A DNA stretch of 64,000 nt, taken from the NCBI GenBank assembly GCA_964641225.1, contig CAZXKC010000002.1:52893-116892 (forward strand), in the 5' to 3' direction. This document shows, in pieces, positions 2,912 to 52,194 of this stretch (positions are counted from its first letter, which is position 1; each line of letters starts with the position of its first letter). The notes beneath the pieces are model-generated. The model made no database searches and was not told the origin of the DNA. It saw nothing but the letters and a program-made list of their open reading frames with translations. A program made the translations under genes and the position numbers. This DNA is from an uncultured Candidatus Saccharibacteria bacterium (GTDB lineage Bacteria > Patescibacteriota > Minisyncoccia > UBA6257 > 1-14-0-10-44-23).

Positions 2912-3037
2912 TCCACAGGCATCTCTTGAAAAGGTGCTATACTAAATCTATATGGGACACTTAAAGGGTCACTAAAGCACTTGTGCTTAATCAAAAACAG
3001 CCCTCACGGGCTGTTTTTGATTTCCTGAATACATTTC

Positions 3038-13209: not shown

Positions 13210-13473
13210 TTAGTTTGGTTCGCGTAATTGTTCGCGCAACATTCTTTTGATTGCCCATGCGCCCTGACTTGTTTTCAGGTATCGTTCTCTGCGCCGAGCG
13301 TCTTCTTCGTTGCGATGCCCTTCAAAATAAATAACTTTCCATGGCGCATAGGGCGCAGTTGATTTGTTTTCTTTACGATTATGTTCTTCTAGGCGACGTT
13401 TCAAGTCGGTCGTAAGGCCAACATACAGCCCACGGTCTTTATTCATTAAGACATACACCGTGAAAAACATCAT
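13210..13473 (-). CDS. Small GIY-YIG nuclease-superfamily protein (YhbQ/UPF0213-like)
   Basis: FFTVYVLMNKDRGLYVGLTTDLKRRLEEHN carries the GIY…YVG…R…E motifs. Confidence 0.7.
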   Translation of the reverse strand: MMFFTVYVLMNKDRGLYVGLTTDLKRRLEEHNRKENKSTAPYAPWKVIYFEGHRNEEDARRRERYLKTSQGAWAIKRMLREQLREPN

Positions 13474-13489
13474 CGCACTTGCGTCGTCA

Positions 13490-15016
13490 CTACCTGGCGT
13501 ACTCAACTGCTCGAGTTTCGCGAATCACGTTGACTTTGATTTCACCCGGATACTTCATGTCCGTTTGAATTTTGTTTGCGATGTTACGTGCCATGTCGAG
13601 CGCGGCAAAGTCATCGATCTTTTCTGGAATTACGAATACGCGGATTTCGCGGCCGGCTGAAAGAGCGTAGGCCTGCTTAACTCCTTCAAACTTGCTCGTT
13701 ATTTCTTCCAGATCTTTAAGGCGCTTAATATATTGCTCGACGGTGTCGCGGCGAGCACCTGGGCGAGCAGCCGAGAGAATGTCGGCCATCGTAACGATGT
13801 ACGCCTCAGGCGAGGAGAATGGGTAGTCCTCGTGATGGCTTTCCATAGCAGTGATAACGGCCTGCTCTACGCCGTATTTAGCCAAAATTTTGCGACCAAG
13901 TTCAACGTGCGTACCTTCAACTTCGTGGCTGATTGCTTTGCCAATGTCATGGACAAGTGCGCCTTTTTTGGCGATATCAACATTAACGCCGAGTTCGCGG
14001 GCGACCATGCCGGCAATGTGGGCCATTTCAACTGAGTGCAAAAGCACGTTCTGACCATAGCTGGTGCGGAAGTGCAGGCGACCCAAAAGCTGGAGAATTT
14101 CCTTTGGAAAACCAGTAATACCGACTTCAAGCGTGGCCTGTTCGCCGATTTCCTGCATGCGGCGGATGAGCTCTGTTTTACAAGCCTCGACGGTTTCTTC
14201 GATGCGAGCAGGCTGAATGCGGCCGTCTTTAATCATTTTGTCGAGCGTCATACGCGCGATCTCGCGACGAAGGGGATCAAATGACGAAAGAATGATTGAC
14301 TCCGGTGCCTCGTCGATAATAATTTCAACACCCGTAGCTCGTTCAAGCGCCTTAATGTTGCGACCCTCGCGGCCGATGATTTTTCCTTTAATATCTTCTG
14401 ACGGCAGGTGGAATACTGAGGTGGTAACATCAGCAACCTGGCTGCGCGCGTAGCGCATCAGTGCGGTCGTGATAATTTCCGAGGTTTTCTTTTCAATTTC
14501 ATCGCGACGTTCGTGTTCTACTTTTTGAATCGTGGCGACCATGTCGGCCTTGTAGCGCTCCGTAATGTCTTTAATAATCATCGACTTTGCCTCCTCAGCC
14601 TTCATGCCGGTGATTTTTTCCAGGTGAGCGACGGCTTTGGCGTGTGTTGCGTCTGCGTCTGCTTTAAGAGAATCAACTTTTTTCAGCTCCTCCTGAAGCT
14701 TTGTTTCTCGAGAGGTGATATTGCTCGACTGTGATTCAAGGGTCTCTTCGCGCTTAATAAGGCGCTCCTCAGTTTTGTTGAGCTTTTCCGTGCGATCGCG
14801 TTCGGCTTTTTGACTCTCATTAAGAACCTCGGCCGCTTTTAATTTTGCGTCGGCAACAAGATGCTCGGCCTTTTTCTCTGCCTCGGCAAGCTTAACTTTT
14901 ATTTCTGCATCAACTGACGCTGCTGTCTTGCTGCTACGTGATTTACTGACAAAGAAGCCCGCCGCCGCTCCGACAACTAAAAATACCCAAACCAGTGGGT
15001 TGGAGAGAAAGTTCAT
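13490..15016 (-). CDS. rny: Ribonuclease Y
   Basis: N-terminal TM helix, a long coiled coil, a KH region (IIGREGRNIKALE), and an HD domain (HSVEMAHIAGMVARELG…VHDIGKA). Confidence 0.9.
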   Translation of the reverse strand: MNFLSNPLVWVFLVVGAAAGFFVSKSRSSKTAASVDAEIKVKLAEAEKKAEHLVADAKLKAAEVLNESQKAERDRTEKLNKTEERLIKREETLESQSSNITSRETKLQEELKKVDSLKADADATHAKAVAHLEKITGMKAEEAKSMIIKDITERYKADMVATIQKVEHERRDEIEKKTSEIITTALMRYARSQVADVTTSVFHLPSEDIKGKIIGREGRNIKALERATGVEIIIDEAPESIILSSFDPLRREIARMTLDKMIKDGRIQPARIEETVEACKTELIRRMQEIGEQATLEVGITGFPKEILQLLGRLHFRTSYGQNVLLHSVEMAHIAGMVARELGVNVDIAKKGALVHDIGKAISHEVEGTHVELGRKILAKYGVEQAVITAMESHHEDYPFSSPEAYIVTMADILSAARPGARRDTVEQYIKRLKDLEEITSKFEGVKQAYALSAGREIRVFVIPEKIDDFAALDMARNIANKIQTDMKYPGEIKVNVIRETRAVEYAR

Positions 15017-15220
15017 AAGTGATAAGGTCCCGTATGATATTCGTAGTCAAATAAGTGACCATGAAGGCAAAAGGGATGTAAGAATTAGCTAAATAATTAG
15101 AAAACTATCTTCATTAGTATACGCACTATATCAGAAAATGGCAATTGACAAATTTCTAGTATATAGTGATATTGGTTGCGGTTCTTTGATTTCTTAATTC
15201 AACCAAAAGGGAGGTGGTTT

Positions 15221-16372
15221 GTGTCTCGAACAAGAGGCAATTCGCTTCCGGCGGCTGTTGTTGCTGAGTGCGAAGAGTTGATCATTCAGTTTCGCGAGCA
15301 AGGACTCAAATTGCACGAAATTGGCGAAGAGCTCGGGATGACCAAAAACAGAGTTGGTCAAATGGCCGCCCGACTGATTCGGGAGGGGCGCTTGAAGTCA
15401 AAGTGGAGCACGTTTTGCGGTGAAGCTAGCGACCTAACGTTTCGTGAGAGGCTTCAAGGGCGCGATAGCAAGATTGTCGCTTTTGTAGCAGAAGGGCTTT
15501 GCGTTTCAGAGATCGCAGTGCGGCTCGGCCTTGCCTATAGTGGCGTGTATTCTGCTGTCCGGGGGCTTGTTCAAAGAGGATGTATACCCAAGCCAAAGTC
15601 AAAGCGGGGGTGGTACACGAGGAGCGGAAGGCCCTCTTTCGAGGAGAGAAACAAGGGGTCGATCGCGGTCATAATTGCGATGAAAAAGCAACGCGTAACT
15701 ACTAGAGAGATTGCTGGTGTCCTTAGAATTAGTTGTCGGCGCGTTCGGGAGCTTGCCGGAGAAATTTTGCAGTTGCGCGGTCCGGATATTTTCAAGCCAG
15801 ATGAAGCGCTTTGGATCGCCAAGGAGCTTTGTAGGATCACCGGATGTACTCCGGAATTTCTCAGGAATCTCTGTAAGCGAGGACTTATCCCATTCAGGCA
15901 AGACGACCCCGAAGGTCAGAGGATCTTCAATCAGGAGAGCTTGGTGGCTTTGGTGAAGCGGATGGAGGAGATTGGTCCTAGGAAGCGGGCCTGCCTCGCT
16001 TGTAAGACTGAATTCGTCGGTCGAGCTAATTTTTGCACTGTACGGTGCAAAAATCGTCATCGGTATCTGACCAGAGGAGAGTGGCAACCAGATTGTTCTC
16101 ATGGTTGGCGAAAGATTCTTTGGGAAAGGTTGCAGGGGTACGTTATTTCCGAAGCTGAAGATTGGATCGGTCTGACCGAAGCAGCTCAGCGTGCGGGGCT
16201 GAGTAAAAATCAATTGCTCTATCTTGAGGATATCGCAATTGTCGTGACTAGCCCGCATCCGAATAGGTTATGGTGTGGTCGACCGAAAAAAATGTACGCC
16301 GCAAGTCAAATGGCAATCATCAAGGAGGTGCACCAGCAGTTTCAGAAAAAACCAAGCTCATCTGCGAGCTAG
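15221..16372 (+). CDS. Multi-HTH regulatory protein with a C-terminal Cys-rich, zinc-ribbon-like segment
   Basis: RBS gggaggtg, then a GTG start. At least three HTH-like modules are present: LKLHEIGEELGMTKNRVGQMAARL, LCVSEIAVRLGLAYSGVYSAVRGL, VTTREIAGVLRISCRRVRELAGEI. The Cys-rich segment reads CLACKTEF…CTVRCKNRH. GC content is elevated. Confidence 0.5.
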   Translation: MSRTRGNSLPAAVVAECEELIIQFREQGLKLHEIGEELGMTKNRVGQMAARLIREGRLKSKWSTFCGEASDLTFRERLQGRDSKIVAFVAEGLCVSEIAVRLGLAYSGVYSAVRGLVQRGCIPKPKSKRGWYTRSGRPSFEERNKGSIAVIIAMKKQRVTTREIAGVLRISCRRVRELAGEILQLRGPDIFKPDEALWIAKELCRITGCTPEFLRNLCKRGLIPFRQDDPEGQRIFNQESLVALVKRMEEIGPRKRACLACKTEFVGRANFCTVRCKNRHRYLTRGEWQPDCSHGWRKILWERLQGYVISEAEDWIGLTEAAQRAGLSKNQLLYLEDIAIVVTSPHPNRLWCGRPKKMYAASQMAIIKEVHQQFQKKPSSSAS

Positions 16373-16382
16373 GTTCGCGAGA

Positions 16383-16414
16383 GAGGTCGTGTCTTCGGAT
16401 GCGACCTCTTTTCG
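16383..16414 (+). terminator. Rho-independent terminator
   Basis: gaggtcg-tgtcttcggatg-cgacctc followed by ttttcg. Confidence 0.6.
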
Positions 16415-16441
16415 TTATCTGAAAATGCTATACTTGTAGCC

Positions 16442-18004
16442 ATGGCTGATAAACCGATGTTGGTACTGGCGATCTTAGATGGCTGGGGAGTGGGTAGAAA
16501 GGATTTTACGAATCCGCTGGCTAAGGCGACACTGACAACAATTCCGTACCTTGAACAGCACTATCTGAGCGGCTCACTGCAGGCCTCGGGTATTGCAGTT
16601 GGCTTGCCCTGGACCGAGGTGGGCAACTCCGAGGTGGGGCATTTAACCATTGGCGCCGGCAAGGTGCTCTATCAACACTACCCGCGCATTACATTGGCGA
16701 TTGAACGTGGAGAGTTTCAAAAAAATTCTGTCTTTGTAGAGGCATTTGAGCACGTGAAGAAACATAGCTCTGCCTTAAACATAGCCAGCTTGTTAACCGA
16801 AGGGGCAATTCATGCCGCCTTTGATCATCTTGCAGCACTGATTCAGGCAGCGGCTGATAATGGAGTGAAGCAGGTTAATCTCCATTTATTTGCCGACGGT
16901 AAAGATAGTCGGCCGCATTCTGTTATATCGCTGCTTACAAAATTGCGCGATGTGACGGCTGCTGCCGGCGTTGGCACACTGGCGAGTCTCTCCGGGCGTC
17001 ATTTCGCACTTGATCGCGACAGTCATTACGACCGGACGCAAAAAGCCTATGATGCGATGGTGGGAACCATACCGGTTACCGATAAACCGGTTGAGTCGCT
17101 CATAAATACATTTTATGAAATTGATCAGAGCGATGAGTATTTTTTGCCGGTTGCGCTTGCTCCAAGCGGGCACTCTGTGGGGGATAACGATGCGCTGATT
17201 TTTTGCGATTTTCGCGAGGACTCAATTCGTCAGATCGCCGCTGCGTTTATAGAACCCGCATTTGATAAGTTTCCGGTGAAAAAATTTACTAATCTGTTTG
17301 TGGCGACGATGACCGAGTATACAAAGCATTTTAATGTGCCGGTCGCATTTCCGCCTGAGGATATTACGATGCCGCTCGGTAAGGTGCTCGCAGACGCACA
17401 GCTCAAGCAGTTGCTGATTGCGGAGACAGAAAAATATGCTCACGTGACGTATTTTTTCAACGGATATCGCGACGAAACTTTTAATGGCCAGACAAAAGTA
17501 CTTATTCCATCGCGCAACGTTGAGCGTCATGACCTCGAGCCGGAGATGATGGCGCAGACTATTGCCGACCGCGTTGTTGATGCGCTTACCAAGCATACCT
17601 ATGACGTCATTGTTCTGAACTTTGCTAATGCCGACATGATTGCACACACCGGCAATTTTAATGCCGCGATTACCGCCGCGCAGACCGTTGATGAGCAGCT
17701 GGGCAGAATCGTCAAAGCCTGCGAAGAGACCGATAGTTATCTTGTGGTGACCGCCGATCACGGCAACGTTGAGGTGATGCTTGATGTAATGACGGGGAAC
17801 CCGGAAACGTCTCATGATCCAAGCCCGGTGCCGCTGTATATTCTTGGGCCGGAATTTAAACATGCCGCCGCCGCTTCTGGGGTCTCTGCTGAAGGAGCAA
17901 TTGGCATCCTCTCTGACGTCGCTCCAACGATTTTGGAATTACTCGCACTTAAAAAACCAAACGAGATGACCGGTCAAAGTCTGCTCGGACTTTTAAAGTC
18001 ATAA
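16442..18004 (+). CDS. gpmI: 2,3-bisphosphoglycerate-independent phosphoglycerate mutase
   Basis: The N-terminus LVLAILDGWG and overall length (520 aa) are typical of iPGM. Confidence 0.85.
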   Translation: MADKPMLVLAILDGWGVGRKDFTNPLAKATLTTIPYLEQHYLSGSLQASGIAVGLPWTEVGNSEVGHLTIGAGKVLYQHYPRITLAIERGEFQKNSVFVEAFEHVKKHSSALNIASLLTEGAIHAAFDHLAALIQAAADNGVKQVNLHLFADGKDSRPHSVISLLTKLRDVTAAAGVGTLASLSGRHFALDRDSHYDRTQKAYDAMVGTIPVTDKPVESLINTFYEIDQSDEYFLPVALAPSGHSVGDNDALIFCDFREDSIRQIAAAFIEPAFDKFPVKKFTNLFVATMTEYTKHFNVPVAFPPEDITMPLGKVLADAQLKQLLIAETEKYAHVTYFFNGYRDETFNGQTKVLIPSRNVERHDLEPEMMAQTIADRVVDALTKHTYDVIVLNFANADMIAHTGNFNAAITAAQTVDEQLGRIVKACEETDSYLVVTADHGNVEVMLDVMTGNPETSHDPSPVPLYILGPEFKHAAAASGVSAEGAIGILSDVAPTILELLALKKPNEMTGQSLLGLLKS

Positions 18005-20427: not shown

Positions 20428-20469
20428 ATATATCACTATCTAGAACGGCCGTTCTAGATAGTGATATAT
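20428..20469. repeat. 42-bp perfect palindrome with a GGCC centre and no spacer
   Basis: atatatcactatctagaacgg|ccgttctagatagtgatatat begins directly after the NTase stop codon. No T-run follows. Confidence 0.8.
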
Positions 20470-20653: not shown

Positions 20654-21574
20654 ATGGCCAAGATTGATGAGCTTCTTCAGGATTATTTGGATTATTTGAC
20701 TGTCGAGAAGGGGCGCTCGCCAAAGACGAGGCGTAATTACGAGCATTATTTGCGCGTATTTTTTAAGGATGCCGATATCAAGAAAGAAACAGATATTACC
20801 GAGCGCGTAGTTAAATCATTTCGTGTGCGACTTTCAGAGCAGCAGAGCGGTCGTGGTGGCGTGATGAAAAAGGTAACGCAGAATTATTACGTGATCGCGC
20901 TTCGCAGTTTTTTGAAATATCTTGCCAAGCATGATCATAACGTGATTGCCGCCGACAAGATTGAACTACCGAAAATTGCACAGCGCCAGATTGATATTCC
21001 TGAATATAAAGAGTTTGATCGACTGATGAGCGCCCCAGAGGGCGAAAGCCTGCGCGCACTGCGCGATCGCGCCATCTTAGAGACACTATTTTCAACAGGC
21101 CTGCGTGTTTCTGAGTTATGTAACCTGAGTCGCTACCTTGATCTGAGTCGCGGAGAGATAACCGTACGCGGTAAGGGTGAAAAACTGCGCGTGGTGTTTT
21201 TTTCAGATAGCTGTAAGGCAACGATAAAAAAGTATTTAGATGCGCGCGGCGATGCTATGGAGTGGATGTTTGTCAGTCTCACACGGGTTCCGAAGAAATC
21301 GCAGAAGCCACCGAAGGTGATCGGCAAAATAACTCCGCGTTCTGTGCAAAACATGGTGAATTTTTATTCCCGCAAAGCCGGGCTTTCTCAGAAGGTGACG
21401 CCACACAAGCTTCGTCACTTATTTGCCACTGACTTACTGATTAACGGCGCCGACCTGCGTTCCGTTCAAGAACTGCTTGGTCACAGCAATATTTCTACCA
21501 CGCAAATTTATACGCACTTAACTAATAAACAATTAGGGGACGTGCATAAGAAATTCCATGGAAAGCGGACGTAG
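20654..21574 (+). CDS. xerC: XerC/XerD-family tyrosine recombinase
   Basis: N-terminal SAM-like domain (LQDYLDYLTVEKGRSPKTRRNYEHYLRVFF). C-terminal catalytic motifs HKLRHLFATDLL…LLGHSNISTTQIYTHL. Confidence 0.85.
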   Translation: MAKIDELLQDYLDYLTVEKGRSPKTRRNYEHYLRVFFKDADIKKETDITERVVKSFRVRLSEQQSGRGGVMKKVTQNYYVIALRSFLKYLAKHDHNVIAADKIELPKIAQRQIDIPEYKEFDRLMSAPEGESLRALRDRAILETLFSTGLRVSELCNLSRYLDLSRGEITVRGKGEKLRVVFFSDSCKATIKKYLDARGDAMEWMFVSLTRVPKKSQKPPKVIGKITPRSVQNMVNFYSRKAGLSQKVTPHKLRHLFATDLLINGADLRSVQELLGHSNISTTQIYTHLTNKQLGDVHKKFHGKRT

Positions 21575-21692: not shown

Positions 21693-21703
21693 CCCTGAAA
21701 ATC

Positions 21704-21727
21704 AAAAACGCCCTTGCGGGCGTTTTT
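21704..21727 (+). terminator. Rho-independent terminator
   Basis: aaaaacgcccttgcgggcgttttt. Confidence 0.6.
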
Positions 21728-21743
21728 GATTTGATACCAATTA

Positions 21744-22464: not shown

Positions 22465-22713
22465 ATAATTCGTCAGTCGTGTACCTTGAAAACCTAGGTA
22501 TAGAGCCGTTTTTAGCGGTTTTATGCAATACCTTGCTCTAATTCGTCACGAAATGGGAATCGTATAGCTGATAATGCATAGTCAGCTATACAACTCCCGT
22601 TTCGTGTTAAGTTTGGTTCCTTGTGGAGCCAGCACGGATGGGGCAAGGGCTCTAGTGGCCCGACGCGGGCAAAAGAATGGCCCGCGTTAAGCGGCCATTG
22701 GAGGAGAAAGAAC

Positions 22714-36222: not shown

Positions 36223-36496
36223 AAACGTAAGTGTAGCGGGAAATACGGGCTATTTCAATGCGGCGATGAGCATGCAGCGTTTTATAAGTTCCTTGTTATT
36301 GAGTTCGTCCCATGCTGTGAAAGGTCGAAGCGTATTAATATCTTAATCACACTACATGGCAACACAAGCGCAGCGAGAGGCGGCGCGTCGCAATATAAAG
36401 AAGGCTCAGGCGGCTCGCCGCCGAGGTGGATCACAGAATAATCGGAATACTGGTACTAATAGTCGTAGAAATGATGATATGTAATATCACATAACG

Positions 36497-36525
36497 AAAA
36501 CAGCCCTGCAGAGATGGGCTGTTTT
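36497..36525 (-). terminator. Rho-independent terminator of dnaE
   Basis: aaaacagccctgcagagatgggctgtttt. Confidence 0.6.
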
Positions 36526-36530
36526 CGTTA

Positions 36531-39500
36531 TTAGGCAATTTCTTTTACCTGATCGCAGACCAGTGAGGTCTCGCCATTCCTAAAGTTGAGTTTGCCGATA
36601 CATACAATAATTGCACCCTCTTTAAAGCAGGTTTGATTCTTCGTAAATATTTCTGAGAAGACGACCACCTCAACCGTACCTGAGTGGTCCTCGAGTTTTG
36701 CAAAACACATCGGCTTACCGGTTTTGGTAATAATCGATTTTACGGAATTGATCATGCCGCAGACGCGATAATTTTTAACCGTTGAGCGCTCAACGAGCAT
36801 GTCTTTAATCTTCGTTGGTTTCATTGTTTCAATCTGAGCCGCCGCTACGGTCAGCGGGTGATTGGAGACATAGAGTCCGAGTAATTCTTTTTCCCAGGCT
36901 AATTTTTCTTTATTCGTTGCCTCGGTTGCCGGTTTTAGTTGCAGCGCCTTTGACGCAGCTTTTGAGGTAAACGCATTACCGAATAAGTCGGCGGTTTGCG
37001 GAGCGGCGATTTTACGTGCTGCTTGGGCATATTTTGTGATGTCGTCGATATTAGCGAGCAGGGTATTGCGATCTATCGTAAATCCATCGAGCGCTCCGCA
37101 TTTAATCAGCGACTCAAGCGATTTTTTATTTAAATCTTTGTGTTGTACGCGCGTGAGTAATTCATTGAAGGTTGCAAACTCACCGCCGCGGCTGCGTTCC
37201 TCGATAATTGCTTTAACGATATTGGTGCCAACATTTTTAACCGCCTCAAGACCAAAGCGGACGTTGATTCCTTCTGGTGCAAATGCGGAGGAGCTTTTGT
37301 TGATATCCGGAGGTAAGACCTGCACGCCAGATTTTTTCGCCTCGCTGATCAAGAAAGAGATGCGTTCAATGTCTGAACTTTCTGAATTGAGCAGTGCGGT
37401 TATAAATTCCGTCGGATAATGCGTCTTTAAGTAGGCCGTTCGGTAGGCGATCATCGCGTAACAGGCGGCGTGAGAGCGGTTAAAACCGTAGCGGGCAAAC
37501 GGCGGGAAGAGTTCCCAGATAATGCGGGCGGTGCGTTCTGGAATTCCATTTTTTACCAAGCCGGCAATTAATTTTGCCTCTTGCTCATCAAGCAGTTTTT
37601 TAATTTTTTTACCGATCGCTTTTCGGAGCGTATCAGCCTCTGCGAGCGAGTAGCCGGCCAAATCTGAGGCAATCCGCATCATCTGCTCTTGGTAAATACC
37701 AATGCCGTAGGTTTTTTTCATGATCGGCTCGAGCTTTGGGTGTTGATAGGTTACCTGCTCTTTGCCGTATTTACGATTAATATACGATGGAATCAGTTCC
37801 ATTGGGCCTGGGCGGTAGAGCGCCACCATCGCGATAATGTCCTCGAGCTCGGTTGGCTTTAACTCCTTTAAATAGCGACGCATGCCGCCGGATTCTAACT
37901 GGAATACACCCACGGTGTCGGCGCGCTGGAACAGCTCAAAGGTTGCCTTGTCGTTAAGCGGCAACTTGCTCATATCAATCAGATCTCCGGTTTTTTCTTG
38001 AACGAGTCGGATCGTGTTTTCGATGATCGTCAGGTTTTTGAGTCCCAAGATATCCATTTTGAGCAGACCAAGATCCTCGATTGCATGCATTTCAAATTGA
38101 GTCAGGGTCACGTTTTCATCTTGCGGCGCATGCTGAAGCGGTACGCGTAGTGGTAGCGGTTGTGCGGCAATCACGGTACCACAGGCGTGGACTGAGGCAT
38201 GGCGTGCAACGCCCTCGAGCTTTCGAGCCGCATCGATTAACTTTTTTGCGCGCTCATCGCTTTTATAAATCTGCGCAAGTTCATCGACTTCGGCGAGTGC
38301 CTCATCTAAATCTTTGTTAAACGGAATTAATTTTGCCAGGCGATCGCAAAATGCTAATTCAATATCGAGTGCGCGGCCGACGTCACGAATCGAAGCGCGC
38401 GCCGCCATAGTTCCAAACGTAATAATATGTGCGACACGATCTTTGCCGTATTTTTCCTCCAGATAACTAAAGACCTCGTCACGGCGGACGTCGGTGATAT
38501 CTACGTCGATATCTGGCATTTGAATACGCTCCGGGTTAAGGAAGCGCTCAAAGAGCAGTTCGTAGTGAATCGGGTCAAGATCGGTGATGCGTAATATGTA
38601 AGAAATAATTGATCCGGCGGCAGAACCACGGCCAGGGCCGACAACGACGCCGCGGTCTTTTGCCCAGTTAATAAAATCTTGGACGATCAAAAAGTAATCG
38701 GCAAAACCGGTTTTTTCGATAATACCCAGCTCATATTCAATACGGGTTTTCGTAATCTCATCGACAACCGGATAGCGGTCAGGCGTGCGTTCTTTAACGA
38801 GCTGACGAAGATATGCCTTAGAATCACTGCCGTCCGGTGTATCAAATTTTGGCAGCAGAATTTTTCCCAGCTCTAGTTTAAAGTTACAGGCCTCGGCGAT
38901 TTTTGCGGTGTTTTGAATTGATTCGGGCAGATCAGAAAACGTGTATTCCATCTGCAGGCCGCTCATCACTGAAAAATCATCGGTGAGCGTGAATTTTTTC
39001 GGATCATTTACTTTTTTGCCGGTCTGAATTGCCAGCAAAATATCGTGCACGTCTTTATCTTCGCTGGTTAAATAATGACTGTCTTGAGTGGCAACCAGGG
39101 GAGCGCCGGTCTTTTTAGAAAGTGCGACGAGGTGCGGATTAATCTTTTCAATATCCGGAATTTTCGGGTGGCGACCGATTTCAATATAATAATTTTCTGC
39201 GCCAAAAATATCCTGATACTCGCGGATAACTTTTTCAGCCTGGACGAGATCGTTTTTGAGTGTGGCCTGTGCTAGCTCGCCGCCCAAACAGGCCGAGGTG
39301 GCTATAAGCCCTTCGTGGTGCTTTCGCAGCATGGCTTTGTCCATACGCGGCTTATAATAGAAGCCGTGCAGCCAGCTTTCGGTAACTAATTGCAGTAGAT
39401 TTTTCCAGCCGGCTTCATTTTTGACTAATAAGATGAGGTGATAGTATCGTTCCTCGCCGTTGGTGCCTGTACTGGTTTTGTCTGTGTGATCGCCCGGCGC

Positions 39501-50545: not shown

Positions 50546-50554
50546 TGTTCTTAC

Positions 50555-50586
50555 AAAAAATCCCCGTACTATGCGGGGATTTTTTG
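50555..50586 (+). terminator. Rho-independent terminator
   Basis: aaaaaatccccgtactatgcggggatttttt. Confidence 0.65.
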
Positions 50587-50590
50587 TTTG

Positions 50591-52144: not shown

Positions 52145-52156
52145 AGTGCAAGAAAC

Positions 52157-52185
52157 TAAAAACCGCCCCTCAGGGGCGGTTTTTA
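52157..52185. terminator. Bidirectional rho-independent terminator
   Basis: aaaaaccgcccctcaggggcggttttt. Confidence 0.65.
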
Positions 52186-52194
52186 GTGTGCGAC

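Follow-up and report, generated by a model that had tools for sequence, protein, structure and literature searches.

On balance, the analysis favors the interpretation that the protein encoded between the RNase Y gene (rny) and gpmI, here called X, binds DNA sequence-specifically, is accessory and restricted to a lineage, and most likely regulates transcription, with its own promoter as the minimum target. A strain-specific transcription regulator is the most likely identity of X, and a factor of phage origin or for excision is less likely. The position of X between RNase Y and gpmI, already proposed in the first-pass annotation, was confirmed by matches to TIGR03319 and TIGR01307, and the following features were located in the window, which is the whole 64-kb stretch of DNA that was analyzed.

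13490-15016, minus strand: RNase Y gene (rny), TIGR03319 at 1.7e-179
15125-16428, no strand assigned: window-specific cassette of about 1.3 kb, consisting of promoter, RBS, CDS and terminator and missing in the closest relative
15145-15173, plus strand: promoter-like site of X, with TTGACA at 15145-15150, 17 nt, and GATATT at 15168-15173
15209-15217, plus strand: Shine-Dalgarno sequence GGGAGGTGG of X, with its GGAGG core 6 nt 5' of the GTG
15221-16372, plus strand: CDS of X, GTG start, 383 amino acids, stop at 16370-16372
16382-16418, plus strand: intrinsic terminator of X, with a 12-bp stem, a TTCG loop and then the T-tract TTTCGTTAT
16442-18004, plus strand: gpmI, TIGR01307 at 1.4e-163

The promoter, RBS, GTG start and terminator that had been attributed to X were all borne out. 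The promoter motif is sigma-70-like, with a match score of 10/12, but it had been placed 8 nt away, at 15153-15181; four promoter-like sites were found in the X region against 1.4 expected. The terminator is strong; its hairpin (16382-16409) has a folding energy of -28.1 kcal/mol and a z-score of -4.1, and none of 200 shuffled sequences folded as well. The reading frame is open from 15176, and its credible start is the GTG at 15221, whereas the public NCBI gene model begins at M40 and thereby cuts the first helix-turn-helix (HTH) module in half. The GTG is preferred over M40 because of the RBS, the alignment with homologues and a pLDDT of about 96 at residues 11-50. The protein has 14 cysteines and a net charge of about +26. 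The description of the locus as a moderately GC-rich segment did not hold, since its GC content is 0.52 compared with about 0.50 in the flanks. Its GC3 (0.52) and its codon-usage distance are typical of genes in the window, and a compositional island at X was ruled out on the basis of GC, GC3 and codon usage like those of the rest of the window.

A search of relatives for orthologues at this locus gave none, and X is therefore considered accessory rather than core, as had been supposed: all 16 fetched relatives in which rny and gpmI are adjacent, including one with a 94% identical RNase Y, have no X there. The rny-gpmI gap measures 70-450 bp in 15 of these 16 relatives and about 900 bp in L022. 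No X-family member was found in 80 rny loci of relatives, and neither paralogues of X within the 64-kb window nor Rfam elements or tandem repeats near X were found. Homology with one relative that does not carry X at this site, L001, continues from the start of rny up to about 15124 and is found again from the -10 box of gpmI near 16428; gpmI seems to be leaderless. A short direct repeat is located at these junctions.

15129-15140, plus strand: left copy of the junction direct repeat, TATCAGAAAATG, 11/12 identical to the right copy at a spacing of 1287
16416-16427, plus strand: right copy of the junction direct repeat, TATCTGAAAATG, 11/12 identical to the left copy

Of 5000 shuffles, 7 gave an equally good repeat between the 30-nt stretches at the two junctions. 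A left junction at the RBS, where L001 has the similar sequence ACCAAAGGGGAGG, was also considered and was rejected as not significant (22/500 shuffles). Another relative, L002, carries a different insert in the same spacer between rny and gpmI. The cassette, complete with promoter, RBS, ORF and terminator, probably either arrived whole in this Patescibacteria ('Harrisonbacteria'-like) genome, in the spacer from which the rny and gpmI promoters diverge, or survives only here.

Domain searches and structure prediction divided X into five HTH modules, of which three are tethered and similar to LuxR, sigma region 4 and Cbp2, while the other two are MerR/Xis-like winged modules placed around a Cys4 zinc ribbon.

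15251-15394, plus strand: HTH-A (residues 11-58), sigma-70 region 4/LuxR-like three-helix module, Sigma70_r4_2 at 25.8 bits, with WhiG/FliA alignments
15431-15580, plus strand: HTH-B (residues 71-120), HTH_23/IclR/GerE-like, a repeat of HTH-A, HTH_23 at 3.4e-8
15638-15793, plus strand: HTH-C (residues 140-191), sigma region 4.2-like, at the start of the conserved core of the family
15806-15973, plus strand: HTH-D (residues 196-251), MerR/HTH_17 (Xis/BldC-type) winged HTH
15980-16072, plus strand: Cys4 zinc ribbon (residues 254-284), with C258, C261, C272 and C276
16100-16348, plus strand: C-terminal signature domain (residues 294-376), a helix and the winged HTH-E, pLDDT 91-98

The first-pass annotation had recognized at least three HTH modules and a zinc-ribbon motif; the multi-HTH character stands, but the number of modules is five. 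The motif CLACKTEF...CTVRCKNRH was likewise confirmed, with C258, C261, C272 and C276 as its cysteines. The protein does not end there, contrary to what had been thought, for about 105 residues lie beyond the ribbon, including the fifth HTH, a winged one, which is the most family-specific part. With regard to HTH class, for which sigma-70 region 4, LuxR and Xis/MerR types had been suggested, modules A to C are sigma region 4/LuxR-like and module D passes the cut-offs of HTH_17 (34.2 bits against 27), MerR and MerR_1. The other Pfam matches above cut-off were HTH_23, HTH_IclR and MarR_2, and Sigma70_r4_2 passed marginally. The internal repeats A, B and C are mutually related (z = 6.0 for A versus B), and the linkers between them are rich in K and R.

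The family profile matched Cbp2 (PDB 2LVS) at 4e-8 over two tethered HTHs, and it also matched NarL/GerE and sigma region 4. The AlphaFold2 model built with the family alignment had a mean pLDDT of 88, while the single-sequence model (pLDDT 42) was unusable. In this model the helices of HTH-A comprise residues 11-26, 31-38 and 42-54, and the zinc ribbon is formed by a beta-hairpin (254-267) and a helix (274-284). A fold search of viral structures (BFVD) with the model returned only generic multi-HTH matches with TM scores of 0.14-0.23, and the last ~95 residues of X had no match among Pfam and PDB sequences. No enzymatic or catalytic domain was detected in X by domain searches or in the model, and no sensor or effector domain was found. 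Matches to PHROG HNH families at residues 18-59 and 251-297 raised the possibility of an HNH or other nuclease, which was rejected because the matches cover only DNA-binding and zinc modules and there is no conserved His/Asn motif and no nuclease fold.

X belongs to a rare, very divergent and unannotated family, which was revealed by phmmer alone; word-indexed searches with X or with a 47-sequence alignment recovered only X and one other protein. The exhaustive phmmer search yielded 234 representatives, the best with 37% identity, and 114 matches at E<=1e-10 with full-length alignments. The conserved core, approximately residues 149-377 of X, comprises a region-4.2-like HTH, 'HGxxVF', an HTH_17 winged HTH, a CxxC...F...CxxxC ribbon, a 'GWxxxLWxxLQ' helix and a C-terminal winged HTH. 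HTH-C has the consensus ATLxEIGxxLGVTRERARQLI...HGxxVF, and the C-terminal winged HTH has the consensus 'WLTLxEA..GLSxMQLxWL...PHPTKxWRGxP..YAxSE'. G187, C258, C261 and C276 are invariant in the family alignment of 47 sequences, and F265, C272, W296, L304, W315, A321, Q331, L335, P347 and S362 are at least 90% conserved. X has the elements of the family core and departs from the consensus in places, as in PHPNRLWCGRP. Family members carry from zero to three or more N-terminal repeats, and the C-terminal signature domain also occurs as free-standing proteins of about 100 amino acids (P0110, P0132). The alignment of the X family designated A2 was too divergent to yield search patterns.

Members of the family are about 30-45% identical to one another, and all 13 that were looked up fall into clusters of one or two sequences. 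Other members are located at unrelated housekeeping loci, between fusA and tuf and upstream of secE-nusG, and homologues with enough flanking sequence to be read have their own promoter-like sites and terminators. No adjacent integrase, transposase or phage gene was found in nine homologue contexts. Scans for X peptide motifs in genome, viral and metagenome contigs returned nothing, nor did patterns from alignment A3 in viral and JGI metagenome collections; both required exact short motifs and are weak negatives.

If X regulates transcription, its three three-helix HTHs, joined through basic linkers in the manner of Cbp1/Cbp2, Pax and Myb, would be expected to act together in vivo in reading an extended composite site, tens of base pairs in length. 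The best candidate for such a site is an imperfect palindrome over the -35 boxes together with the spacer and -10 element of the X promoter (15124-15172), and the elements considered as candidate operators are as follows.

15124-15168, no strand assigned: imperfect palindrome CACTATAT...CAATTG...ATATAGTG, which spans back-to-back -35 boxes; candidate operator
15154-15172, plus strand: motif TTCTAG-TAT-ATAGTGATAT, which overlaps the spacer and -10 of the X promoter and is common to the 20428 palindrome
20428-20469, no strand assigned: perfect 42-bp palindrome, possibly a second X site or the terminator hairpin of the upstream ORF

A mirror-image site on the minus strand faces rny (TTGCCA at 15144-15139, 17 nt, TATACT at 15121-15116). 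Occupancy of 15124-15172 would be predicted to repress X, and the mirror-image rny promoter might be affected as well. The palindrome at 15124-15168 is a weak signal, since its score of 20 was reached in 116 of 5000 shuffles (p ~0.02) and at about 1% of the positions in the window. Two homologues, L085 and L082, likewise have promoters flanked by inverted repeats. This weakness of the promoter palindrome (p ~0.02) and the lack of a sensor or effector domain through which X could be modulated are points against a regulatory role.

The composite motif TTCTAG-N(0/3)-ATAGTGATAT occurs three times in the window, against 0.00 expected, and only in the X promoter and both arms of the 20428 palindrome. 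The 10-mer ATAGTGATAT by itself is at chance level and was discarded as a signal, for about 20 exact 10-mers of a 125-nt region recur elsewhere in the window; the weight therefore lies on the composite motif and the gapped alignment only. In that alignment the X promoter matched the 20428 palindrome, both arms of which align, at p ~0.002, a value that refers to one comparison, with equal or better gapped matches of the X promoter elsewhere in the window. None of the 80 related loci has this palindrome, and the hairpin that L001 has in its place is unrelated. The suggestion that it is a cognate site of X thus gained some support from the shared motif, but it may be a plain terminator, because many long hairpins are found at gene ends in this genome. 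As a predicted second X site it is a possible lead.

MerR/Xis-type and tethered HTH modules are also known from architectural, partition and recombination-directionality proteins, and alternative roles for X were therefore weighed. Instead of regulating specific genes, X could have an architectural or chromosome-organizing role, as a nucleoid-associated, anchoring or centromere-binding protein, like RacA, pSK1 Par or BldC, that coats or bridges repeated sites. HTH_17/BldC-type modules are described as binding to direct repeats as head-to-tail multimers (PMC5859096), and X has no effector domain and is very basic (net +26), all of which would suit such a role. We nevertheless regard it as unlikely, because X is accessory and missing at the syntenic site of close relatives, as would be unusual if it served chromosome maintenance, the window showed no repeated arrays of a candidate site, and no gene for a partner ATPase adjoins X. 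Still more doubtful is a sigma-like or anti-sigma-like function, in which the region-4-type HTHs would contact -35 elements or RNA polymerase. Sigma70_r4_2 scored 25.8 against a cut-off of 25.7 bits, a borderline match accompanied by alignments to region 4 of WhiG and FliA, and the HTH-C consensus LGVTRERARQLI resembles region 4.2. However, regions 2 and 3 are absent from X, and without region 2 it is not a true sigma factor; Sigma70_r4 scored 20.7 against 24.1, TIGR02937 reached 25.2 against 42.9 and aligned only to model positions 123-159, and the region-4 fold is common to LuxR/GerE regulators. We consider this role highly improbable.

The reading of X as a phage, mobile-element or excision factor was not supported. 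X would then be a remnant or part of a mobile element and would act, now or formerly, in moving the cassette, as a recombination directionality factor, an excisionase-like protein or the portion of a transposase that binds DNA. The 11/12 direct repeat on both sides of the cassette, the scatter of family members over unrelated sites, the fusA-tuf spacer among them, the different insert in the rny-gpmI spacer of L002, the HTH_17 domain and weak IS630 and Sleeping Beauty/Pax paired-domain similarities are consistent with this possibility. The IS630/Tc1-mariner match (NF033545) is N-terminal and scored 13.6 against a cut-off of 100, and the excisionase-type model TIGR01764 scored 18.7 against 28.8, on a stretch (residues 160-179) other than that of the HTH_17 match. 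Integrase, transposase and phage genes are absent beside X and in the nine homologue contexts, no DDE or recombinase domain was seen in the sequence or the model, and there were no matches in 50,697 phage and 72,556 plasmid records or in IMG/VR motif scans, the latter being a weak negative that depended on exact motifs. Near-identical copies are also absent, the 13 members examined falling into clusters of one or two at about 30-45% identity, and the codon usage of X is host-like. The nearest tyrosine recombinase (20654-21574) is found at the same place in L001, which does not carry X between rny and gpmI. A mobile-element role is thus judged rather improbable, its support being domain likeness and the short direct repeat.

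The preferred reading of X as a regulator can be compared with several known systems. The closest in design are Cbp1/Cbp2 and paired-domain or Myb-type proteins, in which, as in X, basic linkers connect imperfect three-helix HTH repeats, two or three in number; these proteins recognize a long site of about 25 bp, as read by the two HTHs and basic linker of Cbp2 (PMC3597662). Cbp1 and Cbp2 differ in repeat number, as do members of the X family. They are crenarchaeal, whereas X is from a bacterium of the Patescibacteria and has two additional winged HTHs and a zinc ribbon; the Cbp1 model NF040595 scored 14.1, far below its cut-off of 140 bits, and no CRISPR-like array was found in the 64-kb window. 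Module D belongs with the MerR superfamily (Xis, BldC, mad1, TnrA/GlnR and RacA) by its HTH_17, MerR and MerR_1 matches, and it matches the mad1 HTH at 7.5e-13. BldC and Xis, like X, have neither a coiled coil nor an effector domain. In contrast to MerR-family regulators, X lacks a long antiparallel coiled-coil dimerization helix with an effector-binding region behind it; in the model the wing is followed by a helix of only 14 residues (238-251) and then directly by the ribbon. Minimal winged HTHs of the MerR type differ from X, in which two are placed in one 383-residue chain with a Cys4 ribbon between them and three other HTHs ahead, and module E is too divergent from MerR-type modules for a Pfam or PDB sequence match.

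Excisionases are small single-domain proteins encoded by mobile elements beside an integrase with att sites, while X has 383 residues, six modules and rny and gpmI as neighbors. Modules A to C have the fold and signature of sigma-70 region 4 and LuxR/GerE proteins, but X has no sigma regions 2/3 and no receiver or ligand domain, and its modules are in tandem. IS630/Tc1-mariner transposases have a DDE catalytic domain after a bipartite HTH, and X has none. No described family with five tethered DNA readers and a zinc ribbon was found in the searches, and sequence searches place the C-terminal domain of the X family outside Pfam, NCBIfam and solved structures.

If X is merely another HTH regulator, the gains are modest: the start codon is corrected, a new domain family is defined, and there is an operator that can be tested. 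How single genes enter conserved operons in these genomes is a question raised by the junction repeat and by the scatter of family members over different loci. We also entertain, as a speculative and distinctly improbable proposal, that the X family is a new kind of roaming promoter-ORF-terminator cassette in Patescibacteria, which would consist of DNA-binding modules only, generate a short target duplication and enter spacers of strongly conserved housekeeping arrays (rny-gpmI, fusA-tuf and upstream of secE-nusG), either as a selfish element mobilized in trans or as a new local control of essential operons where regulators are few. Patescibacteria (CPR) have tiny genomes with very few recognizable transcription factors. 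Because these bacteria are poor in regulators, and because X is strain-variable, consists entirely of DNA-binding modules and lies between two essential genes, it is a concrete candidate for a gain of regulation in this lineage.

The gene between rny and gpmI is real and looks expressed. The ORF listing gives it as 15176-16372, and GTG 15221 is most plausibly the start of its 383-residue product, protein X, because a ribosome-binding site, the homologue alignment and structure confidence all favour this codon; an alternative in-frame TTG (15176) lies 3 nt past the -10 box and has no ribosome-binding site. The public NCBI model of X (344 aa) begins at an internal ATG (M40), with loss of half of module A, the first of its helix-turn-helix (HTH) units (window 15221-15338).

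13490-15016, minus strand: rny, RNase Y gene (TIGR03319, 1.7e-179)
15145-15150 and 15168-15173: promoter-like site of X, TTGACA, 17 nt, GATATT (10/12 in a consensus scan)
15209-15217: strong Shine-Dalgarno sequence of X, GGGAGGTGG, GGAGG core 6 nt 5' of GTG 15221
15221-16372, plus strand: gene of X
16382-16409: terminator of X, 12-bp stem and TTCG tetraloop, then TTTCGTTAT, 3' of the stop codon (16370-16372)
16442-18004, plus strand: gpmI, cofactor-independent phosphoglycerate mutase gene (TIGR01307, 1.4e-163)

The promoter reported by the first-pass annotation is present, but 8 nt further left than it had been placed. The terminator fold (-28.1 kcal/mol, z = -4.1) was equalled by none of 200 shuffles. 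The segment had also been called moderately GC-rich, but its composition is ordinary (~0.52 versus ~0.50 nearby), and both GC3 (0.52) and codon-usage distance fall in the usual range for genes of the window. Arg (10.9%) and Cys (14) are abundant in the protein, which has a net charge of ~+26.

Searches of Pfam, NCBIfam, PHROGs, PADLOC and PDB sequences with X matched DNA-binding modules alone. The AlphaFold2 model built from a 47-sequence family alignment was confident (mean pLDDT 88; the single-sequence model was unusable), and its pTM of 0.52 is in line with a beads-on-a-string arrangement. Domain searches and model together bore out the predicted multi-HTH architecture, with five HTH modules (A-E); X consists of DNA-binding modules and a zinc ribbon, and nothing else.

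aa 11-58, 71-120 and 140-191: modules A, B and C, three-helix HTHs of sigma-region-4/LuxR-GerE/HTH_23 type
aa 196-251: module D, MerR/HTH_17 winged HTH
aa 254-284: Cys4 zinc ribbon (C258, C261, C272, C276), beta-hairpin and helix
aa 296-305 and 316-376: C-terminal domain, a helix and a second winged HTH (module E)

Modules A, B and C are weakly related to one another (z = 6.0 for A versus B, 3.1 for A versus C, 3.3 for B versus C) and are joined by basic linkers. Module D scored above the respective cut-offs for HTH_17 (34.2 bits), MerR (32.5) and MerR_1 (31.9), and matched the PADLOC mad1 HTH at 7.5e-13. The zinc-ribbon motif noticed earlier exists, but not at the C-terminus as had been proposed, since ~105 residues lie beyond it. 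Neither the last 137 residues of X nor an alignment of the family's C-terminal domain had a sequence match in Pfam or PDB. The X-family profile matched Cbp2, an archaeal CRISPR-repeat-binding protein (PDB 2LVS), at 4e-8 over two consecutive repeats; Cbp2 reads ~25 bp with two HTHs on a basic tether (PMC3597662).

Word-indexed homology searches returned X itself and did not recover its family. When 1.84 billion cluster representatives were searched exhaustively with phmmer, 234 proteins passed E<=1e-3, of which 114 reached E<=1e-10 and 8 reached E<=1e-30; the best match is 37% identical over the full length. The conserved core (X residues ~149-377) runs from module C through 'HGxxVF', module D, the ribbon and a 'GWxxxLWxxLQ' helix to module E, with G187, C258, C261 and C276 invariant. 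The N-terminal HTH repeats vary from none to three or more, and the C-terminal domain also occurs free-standing in proteins of ~100 aa (P0110, P0132). Twelve of the 13 members whose 90% clusters were looked up were singletons and one cluster had two members, indicating a rare and very divergent family. No member is named or carries a family-specific annotation. The constituent domain types are all known already; what the libraries searched do not describe is their combination in X and the sequence family formed by the C-terminal domain.

With RNase Y as the probe, 80 related loci (~0.9 Mb) were fetched, all from Patescibacteria/Paceibacteria MAGs, the nearest of which carry the label 'Harrisonbacteria' or, used loosely, 'Saccharibacteria'. 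Identity to the RNase Y of the window was 94% in L001, 83% in L002, 79% in L003, 75% in L004 and lower in the others. Among the 30 closest loci, which were tabulated, 17 keep the divergent rny-gpmI order; 16 of these 17 have nothing X-like between the two genes, as the proposed accessory nature of X had implied. The X-free spacers measure ~70-450 bp in 15 cases and ~900 bp in L022, versus 1425 bp in the window. A family profile HMM found no member in the 80 loci and no paralogue within the window. X is thus absent from the syntenic site in all close relatives.

Homology between the window and L001 extends from the rny start codon to ~15124 (covering the rny leader and -10 box, which are conserved) and returns at the gpmI -10 box TATACT (16429-16434), so that the window-specific ~1.3 kb holds the promoter, RBS, ORF and terminator of X. 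This cassette is bracketed by a direct repeat:

15129-15140 and 16416-16427: TATC[A/T]GAAAATG, 11/12

A repeat as good between the two junction windows arose in 7 of 5000 shuffles. The repeat would fit either a target-site duplication or an insertion mediated by microhomology. The more parsimonious history is a gain of X in this lineage; repeated loss would be the less likely alternative. The host-like codon usage implies a donor of similar composition or a gene that is not very recent.

Other features of the region were also observed. The same spacer in L002 (4669-6000) holds a different 1.3-kb insert, with a membrane-like 212-aa ORF without Pfam match and 10-nt tandem repeats (GCTGCTAGAG)n; strain-specific DNA seems to have a hot spot in this spacer. 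A stand-alone 98-aa GIY-YIG ORF (13210-13506, minus strand; Pfam 4e-17) lies between an HU/IHF-like gene and rny; as these two genes directly adjoin in L001, it represents a second small strain-variable insertion by rny, and related copies occur elsewhere in L002 and L003. The ~108 nt 5' of rny (15017-15124), which comprise its leader and -10 region, show good conservation with L001, unlike the remaining spacer; they have no Rfam match and could form a regulatory 5' leader for RNase Y. A gpmI -10 box (TATACT, TATAAT or TACACT) 6-9 nt 5' of the ATG is conserved in five genomes (window 16429-16441; L001-L004), and no Shine-Dalgarno sequence precedes gpmI in the window, which suggests that gpmI mRNA may be leaderless.

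Nine contexts of homologues besides X were read.

5' of secE-nusG
On a 1.5-kb contig, neighbours not called
Adjoining leuS and rarA
Among prfB, htrA, divIC and trxB-type genes, with a tRNA-like sequence alongside
Next to a glyoxalase gene and unannotated ORFs
In an interval between ABC transporter and DKNYY-protein genes (two near-identical assemblies)
Next to unannotated ORFs, with a pseudouridine synthase gene ~1 kb downstream
In the str operon between fusA and tuf (P0009; L088 9685-11563), with an unannotated 118-aa ORF

None of the nine had an adjacent integrase, transposase or phage gene, and several homologues have their own TTGACA-type promoter and strong terminator. P0153, ~30% identical to X, lies at another locus in GCA_023255625.1, the MAG of L002; the family is therefore present in this lineage, though not as positional orthologues. 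The L088 contig carries a further extra ORF (229 aa) between rpsJ and rplC. Terminators of three divergent family genes from one sequencing study (L082 1338-1420; L085 9324-9385; L086 2471-2535) share the frame GCGGAAGG...CCTTCCGC followed by a T-run, so gene and terminator may travel or persist as a unit.

A candidate operator was sought in the promoter region and in the palindrome at 20428, which the first-pass annotation had offered as a candidate cognate site.

15144-15139 and 15121-15116, minus strand: TTGCCA, 17 nt, TATACT, mirroring the X promoter and facing rny
15154-15172: TTCTAG-TAT-ATAGTGATAT, over the spacer and -10 box of the X promoter
20428-20469: perfect 42-bp palindrome, ATATATCACTATCTAGAACGG then CCGTTCTAGATAGTGATATAT, following an unannotated 241-aa ORF, 5' of an xerC/D-like gene

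The spacers of the two promoters form an imperfect inverted repeat, CACTATAT...ATATAGTG, centred on CAATTG and weakly significant (p ~0.02 by shuffles), each arm of which aligns to the 20428 palindrome. The palindrome's half-site, TTCTAG-ATAGTGATAT, does recur in the X promoter. The window has three occurrences of the gapped TTCTAG pattern (expected, 0.00); the 10-mer by itself is no more frequent than chance predicts. An alignment to the palindrome as good as that of the X promoter was reached by 9 of 5000 shuffled promoters and 1 of 1006 other window segments, and the promoter has gapped matches elsewhere equal to or better than this one. The palindrome was found in none of the 80 related loci and could serve either as a terminator or as a site for protein binding; normal terminators in this genome are long hairpins. 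The motif link is accordingly a testable lead to a putative operator, not a finding.

Several perfect hairpins with 14-16-bp arms and an A-run, GC core and T-run, such as AAATCAAAAACGCCC...GGGCGTTTTTGATTT, were also seen (2989-3022, 21699-21732, 36491-36531, 52155-52187 and 50553-50587); they look like bidirectional intrinsic terminators, some alike in sequence. On each strand, predicted ORFs overlap a 60-bp near-palindrome (22547-22606) whose 30-nt arms are 83% complementary and directly adjacent.

Our best reading, held with modest confidence, is that X is a strain-specific, sequence-specific DNA-binding regulator. Its tethered HTH modules would together read one long composite site; X would probably regulate its own promoter, and possibly also affect the back-to-back rny promoter. 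The main rival, an architectural or partition-like role, appears unlikely. The phage or excision flavour seen earlier was not upheld, and a mobile-element directionality factor or transposase remnant is rather doubtful: the recombinase linkage that defines such factors is absent, tblastn of X gave no match in 50,697 phage and 72,556 plasmid records, and IMG/VR motif scans were negative. A BFVD fold search gave generic matches. A sigma-like role fails because region 2 is missing.

It is also conceivable, although we consider it a long shot, that the X family is a mobile single-gene cassette targeting conserved operons in CPR genomes; if this were true, the interest of the family would rise.
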